The notes beneath the pieces were generated by a model. It ran no database searches. It was not told the origin of the DNA and saw only the letters and a list, made by a program, of their open reading frames with translations. Shown one piece after another: positions 6,460-60,705 of a DNA stretch of 64,000 bases. The position numbers were made by a program, and so were the translations under genes. Source of the DNA: Octopus vulgaris. Taxonomy: Eukaryota. The stretch covers positions 26,970,001 to 27,034,000 of the forward strand of contig OX597828.1 in NCBI GenBank assembly GCA_951406725.2, read 5' to 3'. Position 1 is the first letter of the stretch, and each line of letters starts with the position of its first letter.

Positions 6460-6510
6460 ATTTTGTGCTGATGAGAAGATAACTTCTTTGAAATGCATGC
6501 ATCCACCAAT
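6460..6510 (+). ncRNA. Candidate minimal type I hammerhead ribozyme (weak stem I)
   Basis: CTGATGA 6468-6474; stem II GAAGA/TCTTT with 5-nt loop; GAAA 6490-6493; palindromic stem III ATGCATGCAT; AUC cleavage triplet (C6503); stem I GTG/CAC plus two further pairs after a mismatch. Confidence 0.55.
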
Positions 6511-6968
6511 CCACTCAAGGGCACTCTGATCTGAGCATACTGTATGCTTCTCAATGACATACTGCAGTGAATAGCCTTTTTCACAGGTTCAGATATCTCT
6601 CAACTATATTTGAACTCAGAACATGTTTGTATTTAGTTGTATATTATGGATGAAAGAGATGGTGTGAGGTTTATATTTTGGGAATCTCCATAGAAAATAA
6701 GAGAAGAGTCACAGAGCCTTTCAAATAATACTCCTTTTTTTGTTATTATTATATTAAGTACATTGAAAAGTACAGTAAGTCATTCAAAATGATTGCACCA
6801 ACACGAACATCACATTGTTCAGTATTTACTACAGATGATATTTTTGCATCAGTTTTCGAAACCTGTTTCGAAGTAAAGTCATATTCCTTTATGCCCAAAT
6901 ATATTTCTTTGGTTTTCTCTTTTTTTCTCAGATTTAATTATGAAAAAAAATTGAATTATATGCCTAAT

Positions 6969-7114
6969 TACTAATGTTTTCTATATATTTTTTCTCTTTA
7001 CAGGTAAGTGAATACTTGACTGTCTCTCATCTCAGAAATCCTTCTTCACTATTGGAATATTTTCATTAAATATTTCAATAAGTTTTCAGACAGGTTTTCC
7101 ATTTTTTTGTGAGT
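6969..7114 (+). promoter_or_regulatory. Candidate recursive splice site (3'ss|5'ss, AG|GT) with downstream cryptic 5' splice site
   Basis: TACTAAT 6969-6975, pyrimidine tract TTTTTTCTCTTTA, CAG 7001-7003 immediately followed by GTAAGT 7004-7009; second donor GTGAGT 7109-7114. Confidence 0.55.
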
Positions 7115-7155
7115 ATAAATCTGCTTCAAAAAGAAAACGATATTATTATTATTAT

Positions 7156-7706
7156 TGAATGAGAGATCAATGCTTGCCATGAAAGTGACACTGGGGTACA
7201 AATATATGAAACCCTGTGTACCCATCATGACTACCTGTCTGATAAGGGTACACCAGGTACATACAACATAACTATGTGTTCGCCACATAGTGATCTCATA
7301 TCAAGATAAAGAGTGCATTACCTTGCAGGTGGGGCCCAGTTAGAATTTTATTTGAGTAGCCCATCCCACTCAAAAGGTCCCTGAATAAGAGTTGTTTGAA
7401 GATGTTGAATGAAACACCTGTATTTCCAAGGGTGAATTATTCAAACCCCAAAGAATTCCTCTCAGTACATGGCTAGGATGCCCCACCCACAAGTACTACT
7501 GGTCATAATCAGAGATGCTCATATCATCAGCCACCAAGGGACATGCTCAACTAGTTAAGGTCAAACAAATGACCAACACATTTGTGGTATTGAGCAGAAT
7601 ATTTATTGTAGCCCATCTTTTTATATCAAGACAAAACAATGTACATGACAACACTTCCATTCAGTTAAGATCAAAAGCCATGAGAGCCACTGCCTGGTAT
7701 TGCATC
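7156..7706. repeat. ~550 bp unclassified interspersed repeat embedded in (TTA)n; partial second copy at ~8075-8228
   Basis: TGTGGTATTGAGCAGAATATTT..TGTAGCCCATCTTTT..AAAACAATGTACATGA..GAGAGCCACTGCCTGGTA occurs at both places; TTA tracts on both sides. Confidence 0.7.
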
Positions 7707-7809
7707 ATTATTTCATTATTAAGTTTATTATTATTATTATTATTATTATTATTATTATTATTATTATTATTATTATTATTATCATTATTATTATCATTAT
7801 TATTATTCA

Positions 7810-8060
7810 AGTTGACTTAGGGTTGATTATATTCATGTGAGTAGCGGGTTACTACCTGTAACTTTAGATATCCACAAACCTTCAATAATCTTTCAAGCGC
7901 TCAAAACCCTCCTCTGTGATCTTTCCTGTTCCTAAGAGGCAGACTTTCTGTAGAAGTTCCACGGGGCATTCTGTTCCAATCTCCTTCAAACATTTGTCTA
8001 TATTATTACTCATTGTCCCTAAAACACCAACTATTACAGGAATAACCTTTACAGTTTTCA
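7810..8060 (-). mobile_element. 3' end of Dong/R4-clade non-LTR retrotransposon abutting (TAA)n
   Basis: Minus-strand translation DKCLKEIGTECPVELLQKVCLLGTGKI resembles the R4/Rex6 C-terminal LQK..LLGT.KI motif; runs into a (TAA)n tract at ~7725-7807. Confidence 0.6.
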
Positions 8061-57737: not shown

Positions 57738-57973
57738 GGCGGCGAGCTGGCAGAAACGTTAGTTAGTATGCCGGGCGAAATGCGTAGCCGTATTTCGTCT
57801 GCCGTTACGTTCTGAGTTCAAATTCCGCCGAGGTCGACTTTGCCTTTCATCCTTTCGGGGTCGATAAATTAAGTACCAGTTACGCACTGGGGTCGGTGTA
57901 ATTGGCTTAATCTGTTTGTCTGTCCTTGTTTGTCCCCTCTGTGTTTAGCCCCTTGTGGGTAGTAAAGAAATAG
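57738..57973 (+). mobile_element. Young family C tRNA-derived SINE
   Basis: GGCGGCGAGCTGGCAGAAACG (A box), GAGTTCAAATTCC (B box), central GTCGACTTTGCCTTTCATCCTTTCGGGGTCGATAAATTAAGTACCAG resembling the conserved central domain of MetaSINE/Sauria-type SINEs; CpG-rich. Confidence 0.88.
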
Positions 57974-58056
57974 TATGTATGTATATATATATATATATAT
58001 ATATATATATTACACATACATACATATAAACACATACACCATCATCATCCTTTATA

Positions 58057-58112
58057 TATCACAGCTGTCTGACGAATGGGAACGTGAAACTCTGAGTAGC
58101 AGTTCTGTGATA
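58057..58112 (+). ncRNA. Minimal type I hammerhead ribozyme with canonical catalytic core
   Basis: Stem I TATCACAG-CTGT / GCAG-TT-CTGTGATA; CTGACGA 58069-58075; stem II ATG/CGT with GGAA loop; GAAA 58086-58089; stem III ACTC-T-GAGT; GUA triplet (cleavage after A58098); AATAAA ~15 nt downstream. Confidence 0.8.
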
Positions 58113-59119
58113 ATTTTGCAGCTTTAATAAAAAGAATATTGCTCTACATTTGGTATCTGAGTACTATTTTTTCCACACCTTGTTTTGCACTTATGTGCTC
58201 ACCTCTACCTGTGTGTATATGTATATTTATATATATGTGTGTGTGTGTGTACGTAGGTATATGCATGTGTTTGTACATAGATGTTTATCATTATCACCAT
58301 CCACTTTTCCATGCTTGCATGGGTTGGGCAGATTTTATCGAGTCAGGATTTCTACGCCCAAATGCCCTTCCTCTCACCAAACTCCCTTGTTTCCAAGGAA
58401 AACAGTATTTTTCTCAAGCCGAAACATATAGGAATAAGTAGATTTCCTTGTGAATATTTGAATTAAATATTGAAATTGTTCCAGTTCCTTTGTCATTCCG
58501 CTTATTCCTTCTGCAACACTTGTAGTCTCTCATTATTTCTGTTTCAATAATGATTCACTTCAGCCAATGCTGCCCTGAAAAATAACATCAAGGTTGCTGT
58601 GAGCTTGTTGTTGCCAAAGTGGAATGGTTAAAGTTCCTCAAAGGCTCTCATAGACAAGTGAATGTTCTTAACAGTACAACTGAACTTTGTATGACAGATG
58701 ATCAAACTGGGTGACCCCTTTTCCCCACACACACACATACACACAACATTTTCTGACATTGCTAGGTCTCTAAGTGTATTTTGTCAAGGGTTATTGTTGT
58801 ACAGCCTAATAGAAAGATGGATATTGTCTTGGAAACTGGCCAGAATGCTAGGCATTTGTCATGTCTCTGCATTATAGAAATTATAAGTTCTTCTCACAGT
58901 GAGGGCCTGTTCTTGTATAACAAATGCTGTTGCATCTGTTATTTTTAGACTAAACTTATTCATCATCATCATCATCATCATCTCTTGGTGCTTGTGTGGA
59001 TTGGACAGAATTTATTGAGGCAGCAGTTTTTTTACAACTGGATGCTTTTCCTGTCACCAACCCACACTTGTTTCCAAGAAAAGTAATATTTCTCCATAGC
59101 CCGATATGTTTGCACAGAA

Positions 59120-59950
59120 TAATTATTTATTTATTGCCCACAGGGGGCTAAACATAGAGCAGACAAACAAACAAAGACAAAAGGATTAAGTCAATTCCAT
59201 TGACTCCAGTGCATAACTGGTACTTATTTAATCGACTCTGAAAGGATGACGGGCATAGTTGATCTCAGTGGAATTTGAACTCAGAAGGAAATACCGTGAA
59301 GCATTTTGCTTGGCATGTTAATGATTCTGCCAGCTTGCCGCCATAATGATGCCACTGCTATGCAATATGAAGACAAGGAGACACAAACAGACACAACATT
59401 CTGCTTTCAGTTTCTGTCTAACATATCCACTCGTAAGGCTTTGGACAGCTTGAAACCTTAGTAGAAGACACTTGCCAAGGTACCACAAAGTAGGACTGAA
59501 CCCAAAACCATGTCATGAGGAAGCAAACTGCCTAACCACTGAGCCACACTTGTAATAATAATAATAATATATTTCTTTACTACCCACAAGGGGCTAAACA
59601 CAGAGGGGACAAACAAGGACAGATGAACGGATTAAGTCGATTATATTGACCCCAGTGCGTAACTGGTACTTAATTTATCGACCCCGAAAGGATGAAAGGC
59701 AAAGTCGACCTCGGCGGAATTTGTAATAACAATAATAATAATAATAATAATTATGATAATGATAATAATATTAACAATGCTTTGTACGATTGGCACTAAG
59801 CCTGAAATATTGGGGGAGGTGGGTAAGTTGATTACATTGACCCCAGTGTGCAGCTGGTACTTATTTCATCGACTCCCCCTGAAGGATGAAAGTCGACCTT
59901 GACAGAATTTGAACATAAAGACAGATGAAATGCTGCCAAGCATTCTATCC
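59120..59950 (-). mobile_element. Cluster of three family C SINE copies (~59120-59345, ~59570-59723, ~59780-59950) interleaved with family A pieces and (AAT)n
   Basis: CCAGTG..CTGGTACTTA..ATCGAC..GAAAGGATGA recurs three times. Confidence 0.8.
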
Positions 59951-60539
59951 GAAGTTGCAGGATACGAAATCCACTCACAAGGTTTTGGTTGATCCCAGGC
60001 TATAGTAGGAGACACTGGCCCAAGGTGCTACATAGTGGGACTGAACCCAGAACTATGTGGTTGGGAAGCAAACTTCTTTCCACACAGCCATGCCTACACC
60101 TAAAGCATAGAACCCACCCTTCTACCCCTTGGTCAGGTGATCAAATCTGGGCCTTTTGATATCCCCAGTGACAGGCAGATATATGGAAATTTCAATTTCT
60201 ATCACTGTTAAAACAGGAAGTTTGTATCAAGGGACTAAGGACAGTTTCAGTGGAATCGGTATGAAAAGGGTTGAAAATATTTAGGGACTTGGAAGCGAGT
60301 TCAATGAACAGGCAGCTCACTTCATTGGACTGTCATGTACTGATTGTCAAAACTGATGGAGACTCCATTTGTAATAACTCACTGTGTGTGTGTATGTATG
60401 TATATATATATATATATATATATATATATATATATATATATGTATGTATATATAGATTCAAATGAATGTGGTACTTAAGTTAGATGCACCAGAATTTTGT
60501 ATGGTGTTATCCATATAAATCCATGGGGTTATTATAATA

Positions 60540-60705
60540 AAAAATAAGCAACAAGAATAACTTCGGTAAGTTGGTACGATCGTTTCACACTACATCATTT
60601 TATTAAATATTTTAAAACTGTTGTAATACTTACAATATTTAATAAAATGATGTAGCGTGAAATGATCGTACCAAATTACTGAAGTTATTCTTGTTGCTTA
60701 TTTTT
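60540..60705. repeat. Inverted repeat (foldback), ~72-bp arms, ~22-bp loop
   Basis: AAAAATAAGCAACAAGAATAACTTCGGTAAGTTGGTACGATCGTTTCACACTACATCATTTTATTAAATATT is mirrored with 4 differences. Confidence 0.95.

Follow-up and report, generated by a model that had tools for sequence, protein, structure and literature searches.

Minimal hammerhead motifs on dispersed retroelement fragments, probably inserted by Penelope-like machinery, in the genome of Octopus vulgaris

Minimal hammerhead ribozymes (min-HHRs) are known from the pseudo-long terminal repeats (pseudo-LTRs) of Penelope-like elements (PLEs), and a single genome can hold many consensus families of them that are unrelated to each other; the majority of the motifs stand solo, which was attributed to truncated PLEs, others form opposite-strand pairs 100-700 base pairs (bp) apart, U3-A8 covariation was reported for Cercyon of Schistosoma mansoni, and the G10.1-C11.1 pair closing stem II is stressed as conserved (Cervera and de la Peña, 2014; PMC4209133). 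PLE insertions are further characterized by inverted 5'-truncated copies, partial tandems and a bias towards microsatellites (Craig et al., 2021; PMC8557442), and the retrozymes of animals have been presented as dependants of PLEs (Cervera and de la Peña, 2020; PMC7229834; Li et al., 2026, preprint 10.64898/2026.07.22.740005). Here we describe a 64-kb stretch of the 2.8-Gb Octopus vulgaris genome (contig OX597828.1; "the window" in what follows), in which three motifs probably represent minimal type-I hammerheads on dispersed retroelement fragments likely inserted by PLE machinery. The phenomenon as such is already in print (PMC4209133), and the octopus families are further examples of a known pattern; our literature search for hammerheads in molluscs or cephalopods gave nothing specific.

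Three hammerhead motifs and the families that carry them

Both strands of the window were scanned with a hammerhead descriptor demanding a core box, a stem II of at least 3 bp, GAAA, a stem III of at least 3 bp, H17 and a stem I of at least 3 bp, which was run with the cores CTGANGA (C3-G8) and TTGANAA (U3-A8) and controlled by dinucleotide shuffles. The C3-G8 form was matched at exactly two sites on the two strands, +6468 and +58069, against a shuffle mean of 0.0125 (at least one match in 5 of 400 shuffles, at least two in none of the 400); in a stricter run, with stem III limited to 12 nucleotides (nt), the mean fell to 0.003 and one of 300 shuffles held at least one match. For the U3-A8 form, the two sites +10340 and +19578 compare with a shuffle mean of 0.02 (at least one match in 6 of 300 shuffles, at least two in none), and they represent one event because the segment 8721-17858 is duplicated at 17959-27089. 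A loose descriptor consisting only of core box, stem II and GAAA would be expected 0.295 times per window. A preliminary description of this DNA, made from its letters, had placed three sequence-unrelated folds of one design at 6493, 10365 and 58089 and had named shuffled sequence as their yardstick; the folds lie where it put them, and the comparison, run on the window, set two C3-G8 and two U3-A8 sites against means of 0.003-0.0125 and 0.02.

All three sites carry the hammerhead core boxes (C3-U4-G5-A6-N7-G8-A9 with G12-A13-A14, or the U3-A8 covariant), a stem III that is short and palindromic and precedes an N-U-H cut site (ATGCATGCAT-C, ACTCTGAGT-A and ACCGGT-A) and an open-ended stem I, for which the flanks provide at least three consecutive pairs. 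The motif at 6468-6503 reads CTGATGA…GAAA-ATGCATGCAT-C, with the 10-nt palindrome ATGCATGCAT at 6493-6502 and C6503 as H17; the motif at 58069-58098 reads CTGACGA…GAAA-ACTCTGAGT-A, with ACTCTGAGT at 58089-58097 and A58098 as H17; and the motif at 10340-10371 is the U3-A8 form TTGAAAA…GAAA-ACCGGT-A, with ACCGGT at 10365-10370 and an identical copy at 19578. Stem II has 5 bp at 6468, 3 bp at 58069 (AUG/CGU, with the loop GGAA) and 5 bp at 10340 (UGUCU/AGACG), and a long stem I at 58069 pairs CACAGCUGU with GCAGUUCUGUG. Homodimers predicted with ViennaRNA, in which stem III pairs in trans, beat two monomers in each case (-34.8 vs -20.0, -34.9 vs -27.2 and -17.7 vs -11.8 kcal/mol). Lünse and colleagues reportedly have a paper on dimeric PLE hammerheads. 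Judged by their sequence, the three are non-random, Penelope-type hammerhead motifs with a short palindromic stem III, for which cleavage is predicted.

Family 1 is represented in the window by a full copy of this ~280-nt element at 6393-6640 on the plus strand (family profile in nhmmer, E 2e-53; descriptor; 30-copy alignment). Its hammerhead, which the family alignment places ~70 nt from the element's 5' end, consists of the 5' strand of stem I (6456-6467), the core CTGATGA (6468-6474), stem II (6475-6489), GAAA (6490-6493), the palindromic stem III (6493-6502) and the predicted cut at 6503/6504, the pairing being backed by pair counts over the family. A 5'-truncated copy on the same strand (6268-6344, profile positions 176-253, nhmmer E 6.7e-7) stands directly upstream of the full one, the two giving a partial tandem as in pseudo-LTR formation. 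The same truncated-plus-full architecture recurs at a second locus (L174), a third (L175) holds an inverted truncated copy, a truncated copy and then two full copies, and short head-to-tail tandems (dimers and trimers) occur with a period of ~330-350 nt. The genome gave 37 matches to family 1 at 75-90% identity and 116 to the exact pattern CTGANGA-N13-17-GAAATGCATGCATC, with none for the reversed-pattern control that was paired with every exact family pattern searched genome-wide. In the 30 aligned copies, 84.2% of the cells of the fold are paired, as compared to 27-41% with slid partners. Two-sided changes occupy 30 cells against 15.1±3.2 in shuffles, a level reached in none of 500, which is not to be read as a probability because the copies are related. 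The covariation concerns a pair of stem II (AU 19, GC 7) and pairs of stem I (UA 11, CG 5; AU 14, GC 4), where two-sided changes were found in six of ten pairs. The full descriptor is still passed by 5 of the 30 copies sampled.

The single family 2 copy, at 58053-58279 on the plus strand (nhmmer E 4e-60; descriptor; alignment), is solo, starts at its hammerhead and has microsatellites on both sides. Here the 5' strand of stem I lies at 58057-58068, the core CTGACGA at 58069-58075, stem II at 58076-58085, GAAA at 58086-58089, ACTCTGAGT at 58089-58097 and the 3' strand of stem I at 58099-58111. The family numbers 1,627 genomic matches, this and the counts of 1,415, 7,879, 1,712 and 1,551 given below being first-look candidates; most aligned copies share the consensus CTGAYGA-ACGGGAACGT-GAAA-CTCTGAGT-A with a stem I of 6+5 bp, and most of the differences among copies are CpG-to-TpG/CpA changes. 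The pattern CTGAYGA-N8-12-GAAACTCTGAGTA was found 465 times (reversed control 0). Some of the family 2 matches are neighbours that form divergent (-,+) pairs whose arms differ in length, the copies end in (TG)n or (TA)n, and 8 of 40 sampled pass the full descriptor. Searches with the family profiles (nhmmer) found no further copy of family 1, 2 or 3 in the window, where many weak matches to the family 2 profile correspond to its microsatellite tail. Another abundant repeat, of ~175-nt units (1,551 candidates, ~92-94% identity), lies near the family 2 copy at 57735-57973 (+) and 59118-59345 (inverted); it is tandem at some loci, and at about 10 of 30 sampled loci its distance from family 2 is no more than 1.5 kb.

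An autonomous Penelope-like element and the family 3 inverted repeat

The third motif could be connected to an autonomous element, PLE-A, which was found by querying the genome with a weak reverse transcriptase (RT)-like open reading frame (ORF; weak RVT_1) beside a family 3 copy (L064). The query returned 7,879 candidates, and many of the best 150 matches scored fall in 784-amino-acid frames uninterrupted by stops. Such a frame at L105 contains EADKGSAVV (the DKG motif), RT motifs including YLDD, a CGRPNCGIC linker (CX4CXXC) and a GIY-YIG-like end, and Pfam recognizes RVT_1 (E 2.9e-8) and GIY-YIG (E 1.5e-4) in the ORF; PLE-A is a canonical endonuclease-bearing PLE. On one contig (C9) it forms head-to-tail units of ~4.43 kb (L123 and L124, G000:C9:10670001-10688000), each with the sense-strand hammerhead TTGAAAA-GGTC-TCAAAAT-GACC-GAAA-CCGG-TA|C, which lies ~50 nt before a 446-amino-acid upstream frame and ~750 nt past the end of the 784-amino-acid frame. 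A single copy on another contig (C1, L125) is flanked by two U3-A8 motifs, of which the downstream one is in sense and the upstream one in antisense. For the PLE-A motif, too, the homodimer predicted with ViennaRNA is favored (-27.1 vs -19.6 kcal/mol for two monomers). PLE-A copies occur in 4.4-kb tandem arrays and in inverted pairs, many with identical-scoring stop-free 784-amino-acid frames, and the element is apparently young and very abundant.

The family 3 copy in the window is an inverted repeat at 10005-10438. Its left arm (10005-10237, minus strand; nhmmer E 7e-55) matches the PLE-A pseudo-LTR with 73.5% identity over 211 nt (BLAST, E 5e-27) and holds a decayed U3-A8 hammerhead (GACGGAAA to GGCAGAAA), while the right arm (10250-10438, plus strand), identified by the descriptor, matches it with 74% identity over 181 nt (BLAST, E 1e-22) and ends at a (TATG)n tract. 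The right-arm hammerhead is made up of TTGAAAA (10340-10346), stem II (10347-10361), GAAA (10362-10365) and ACCGGT (10365-10370), with A10371 as H17. The mirror image noticed earlier at 10109 is indeed part of the other arm (10104-10109, minus strand), but as a motif it has decayed and fails the descriptor. A second copy of the inverted repeat, at 19243-19676, lies in the duplicated block and is no independent insertion. The two 9.1-kb blocks (8721-17858 and 17959-27089) are in tandem at 98.7% identity, and the gap between them (17859-17958) is exactly 100 N; the doubling could reflect either a genuine duplication of recent date or an artefact of the assembly or of haplotypes.

Genome-wide, family 3 gave 1,415 candidates, with TTGAAAA kept in nearly all aligned copies, and the pattern TTGAAAA-N11-17-GAAACCGGTAC was matched 4,348 times (reversed control 0). 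Among the first 100 genome matches listed, all 14 close U3-A8 pairs (less than 5 kb apart) are divergent (-,+), like 10109/10340, and four of these flank ~3.2-3.7 kb, the size of a PLE body. PLE ORF fragments adjoin the arm at 4 of 30 family 3 loci (L064, residues 11-458 at 63% identity; L065; L079; L087), with 43-76% identity to the PLE-A proteins, and at L065 the ORF end is followed by the arm and then by the beginning of the upstream ORF, the order found where two units meet. The full descriptor is passed by 3 of 33 family 3 copies sampled. The homology of the arms to the PLE-A pseudo-LTR, together with the ORF fragments beside them, identifies family 3 as the end region of an older PLE lineage, and 10005-10438 consists of two diverged ribozyme-bearing pseudo-LTR regions of such a lineage, joined head to head.

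The window itself carries no Penelope coding sequence, as had been noted at the outset: tblastn with the genome's own PLE proteins (E<=1e-3) detected no Penelope ORF, and Pfam detected neither RVT nor GIY-YIG in 103 of the 118 ORFs of at least 70 amino acids, the 15 omitted ones sitting in the duplicated block. The proposed link between the hammerhead families and autonomous PLEs was found for the U3-A8 family, but not for families 1 and 2, which show no similarity to PLE-A.

Comparison with described elements and rival explanations

With the min-HHRs of PMC4209133 the octopus motifs share the type-I topology, the very short palindromic stem III implying dimers, the presence of many unrelated families in one genome, the association with PLE flanking repeats, the mostly solo copies, opposite-strand pairs 100-700 bp apart and the replacement of C3-G8 by U3-A8. 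They differ in that the octopus families have sequences of their own and stem II closing pairs varying between G-C, G.U, A-U and A.G. In families 1 and 2, moreover, stem I is longer and interrupted by an internal loop, and stem III, though short, is a genuine helix; these two families seem to have more in common with the "canonical" animal type-I motifs than with min-HHRs of the most reduced kind. To the non-LTR retrozymes of animals (PMC7229834), the similarity lies in ORF-less, low-GC units of ~170-400 nt with one type-I hammerhead each, in the coexistence with autonomous PLEs proposed as mobilisers and, for family 1 (~280 nt), in head-to-tail dimers and trimers. Whereas those retrozymes form head-to-tail arrays of 150-450-bp units and yield circular RNAs (circRNAs), long arrays were not seen here, truncated or inverted partners were, and families 2 and 3 were found solo or inverted with no tandems. 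Canonical PLE insertions (PMC8557442; Frangieh et al., 2024, PMC11167929) resemble ours in the partial tandems forming pseudo-LTRs, the inverted 5'-truncated copy at the 5' end, the association with microsatellites and the position of the hammerhead close to the 3' end of the element, immediately ahead of the following unit's ORF; the PLE-A linker, likewise, is of the CX2-5CXXC type preceding GIY-YIG. Unlike such insertions, the window holds terminal fragments only.

An insertion architecture of PLE type (a partial tandem and/or an inverted 5'-truncated copy, with microsatellites) was observed for all three families, and only for family 3 was homology observed to a repeat that flanks an autonomous PLE. 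For families 1 and 2 we suggest short elements devoid of ORFs, either resembling retrozymes or consisting of a pseudo-LTR only, which would have been mobilised in trans by PLE proteins; this is proposed because of the tandems in which a 5'-truncated copy precedes a full one, the inverted 5'-truncated partners and the microsatellite ends. Where a source element gives transcripts with two copies, their hammerheads would be expected to work as a dimer joined by the palindromic stem III. By analogy with the literature (PMC4209133; PMC8557442; PMC11167929), the cut after H17 would trim multimeric transcripts to unit-length RNA, reverse transcription would start internally near the pseudo-LTR, and target-primed insertion into A+T-rich or microsatellite DNA could produce both the 5' truncation and the inverted partner.

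Several observations weigh against this reading. The pairs closing stem II differ from the canonical G10.1-C11.1: the pair is G.U in the window copy at 6468 (G-C in 16 of 30 family 1 copies), A-U at 58069 (family 2) and U.G at 10340 (A.G in most aligned family 3 copies), while in PLE-A it is G-C, with genome variants including G.U and A-U. The hammerhead models of Rfam give no match at gathering in the window, and the hammerhead family is absent among the best 150 of the 333 Rfam matches at E<=10 in the window as well as among the best 150 of the 168 matches on four motif-holding loci. At the DNA level no similarity to PLE-A could be detected for families 1 and 2, a PLE ORF within 1.5 kb was found at none of 60 sampled loci of these families, and a walk upstream from one family 2 locus (L055:1584-1983) in search of a coding parent matched only an unrelated abundant repeat; it is therefore the architecture that points to the proposed PLE dependence of the two families. 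The GIY-YIG domain of PLE-A scores 22.4 bits, just below the Pfam cut-off of 22.6. Finally, published min-HHRs cleave poorly in vitro (PMC4209133), and one PLE was inserted in vitro without needing hammerhead cleavage, with none of the RNA-seq reads ending at the cut site (PMC11167929).

One alternative is that DNA rich in A+T and in microsatellites gave rise to the motifs by chance. Rfam leaves the motifs unscored and the loose descriptor, at its expected 0.295 matches per window, would allow for such an accident, but the full descriptor was expected only 0.003-0.02 times where 2+2 sites were observed, thousands of genomic copies stand against none in the controls, family 1 shows covariation and the same motif resides in the pseudo-LTR of an intact PLE, so that we consider chance hardly credible. 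Somewhat less remote, yet still very unlikely, is that 10005-10438, the family 2 pairs and a hairpin at 60537-60705 are miniature inverted-repeat transposable elements (MITEs) or foldback DNA transposons whose arms resemble hammerheads by accident. The structures are abundant, palindromic, 150-430 nt long and without ORF, and the flanks sampled are rich in fragments of mariner/Tc1 transposases; Pfam, applied to 57 of 163 flank ORFs (the longer ones, from the first 90 loci), returned mariner/Tc1 transposase pieces, a zinc-finger gene and the one weak RVT_1 of L064. However, homology connects the arms of family 3 with a PLE pseudo-LTR, PLE ORF remnants continue some of the copies, the arm pairs are always divergent and unequal in length, as in PLE insertions, and the reversed-pattern controls are empty; for the 60537-60705 hairpin, which is without a hammerhead, a MITE or foldback origin may still hold.

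A further possibility is that the elements are active today, being transcribed (e.g., in introns) and self-cleaving and giving rise to circular or double-stranded regulatory RNAs. The window copies at 6468, 58069 and 10340 do still pass the full descriptor, the short family 1 tandems with their ~330-350-nt period resemble animal retrozymes, which are expressed as circRNAs in other phyla (PMC7229834), and inverted pairs would fold as long hairpins. Set against this, the motif is intact in only 5 of 30, 8 of 40 and 3 of 33 sampled copies of the three families, and the changes in family 2 are mostly CpG decay, a pattern of neutral relics; the dimer design calls for two sense copies, but those of the window stand solo or inverted; and a preprint reports that vertebrate retrozymes are excluded from introns (10.64898/2026.07.22.740005). 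The intronic location proposed in the preliminary description found no support in the window, in which no exon or gene was detected and Pfam gave no domain except a weak zf-BED at 40976-41377. A search for sequencing runs containing the PLE-A unit yielded 20, all as Logan contigs, 14 of them presumed to be RNA and none established as such. Contigs of four sequencing runs on 5000-10431 are mostly other repeats and are neutral on expression or cleavage; their cover at 6456-6637 and 9914-10431 is low and fragmentary, and they show no RNA ends. Present-day activity is, on balance, unlikely, and since so few of the sampled copies pass the full descriptor, individual copies are decaying; the window copies are most likely inert relics under neutral decay. 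Retroelement fragments inserted by PLE machinery thus remain the probable explanation of the three motifs, and the broader expectation of many short ORF-less ribozyme-bearing repeats in this genome was borne out by the exact patterns (4,348, 465 and 116 matches, controls 0), as was their occurrence as solo copies or inverted pairs beside microsatellites. Of the "unannotated layer" of self-cleaving and dsRNA-forming RNA that had been envisaged, the thousands of genomic motifs were found, but to judge from the sampled copies most of it has decayed.

Other repeats of the window and significance for the genome

Of the three further relics proposed alongside the main motifs, the one at 39483 could be retained. 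It lies at 39481-39543 (+) in a family of seven copies that reads CTGATGA-A-GCA..TGC-A-GAAA-TGCATGCA-TCC, with the stem III and cut site of family 1 and an A.A mismatch closing stem II (10.1/11.1), and related strings are also among the listed genome matches of the family 1-type pattern search. The other two candidates are not supported: at 5421 the sequence has AAAA in place of the required GAAA, and at 60575, despite GAAA and a CGATCG palindrome, a core box is absent and the space is too small for stem II. The latter belongs to the young hairpin repeat at 60537-60705 (no strand assigned), which has arms of ~80 nt with GAAA-CGATCG-TAC and is not a hammerhead; its family (~170 nt, 1,712 candidates, 96-99% identity) ends in a (TA)n tract, and a 4-kb interval between two inverted copies at one locus (L153) contained no ORF of at least 150 amino acids, PLE protein match or hammerhead. 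The repeat could represent a MITE or else a further inverted end of a retroelement. The hairpin scored 58 bits on an unrelated plant microRNA model, far under the threshold of that model, and hundreds of sub-threshold Rfam "miRNA" matches (mir-297, mir-466, mir-3149, etc.) are self-folding (TG)n or (TA)n microsatellites and no RNA genes. The remaining repeats comprise a ~400-bp repeat in five copies of both orientations at 83-92% identity (860-1281, 13670-14061, 22896-23283, 29530-29936 and 33088-33490) and a tandem repeat of three units with a period of ~456 bp and 96% identity (34908-36268). The BED zinc-finger match at 40976-41377 (+; E 1.5e-4, 22.2 bits) lies in an ORF that may be a remnant of a hAT-type transposase.

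For the window itself the outcome is an ordinary one, transposon fragments in decay that give no hint of a function for the host. Short repeats, inverted repeats and microsatellite-flanked insertions in the octopus can be explained as products of Penelope-like retrotransposition, and annotation based on Rfam misses thousands of hammerhead motifs. We tentatively propose that the spread of PLE-A and its relatives has given the genome over 4,000 U3-A8 hammerheads with varied closing pairs, next to separate C3-G8 families that are retrozyme-like, which would amount to a natural experiment on the hammerhead core; this is a possibility that we rate as worth stating rather than as likely. Should the variant cores cleave in vivo, possibly helped by a PLE protein, the known sequence space of active ribozymes would be widened, and, if true, family 1 would be a circRNA-producing retrozyme in a lineage without a described one. 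An intact, high-copy PLE with a U3-A8 ribozyme would also provide a convenient system for asking whether the hammerheads of PLEs are needed for transposition, a question under discussion in the literature (PMC8557442; PMC11167929).

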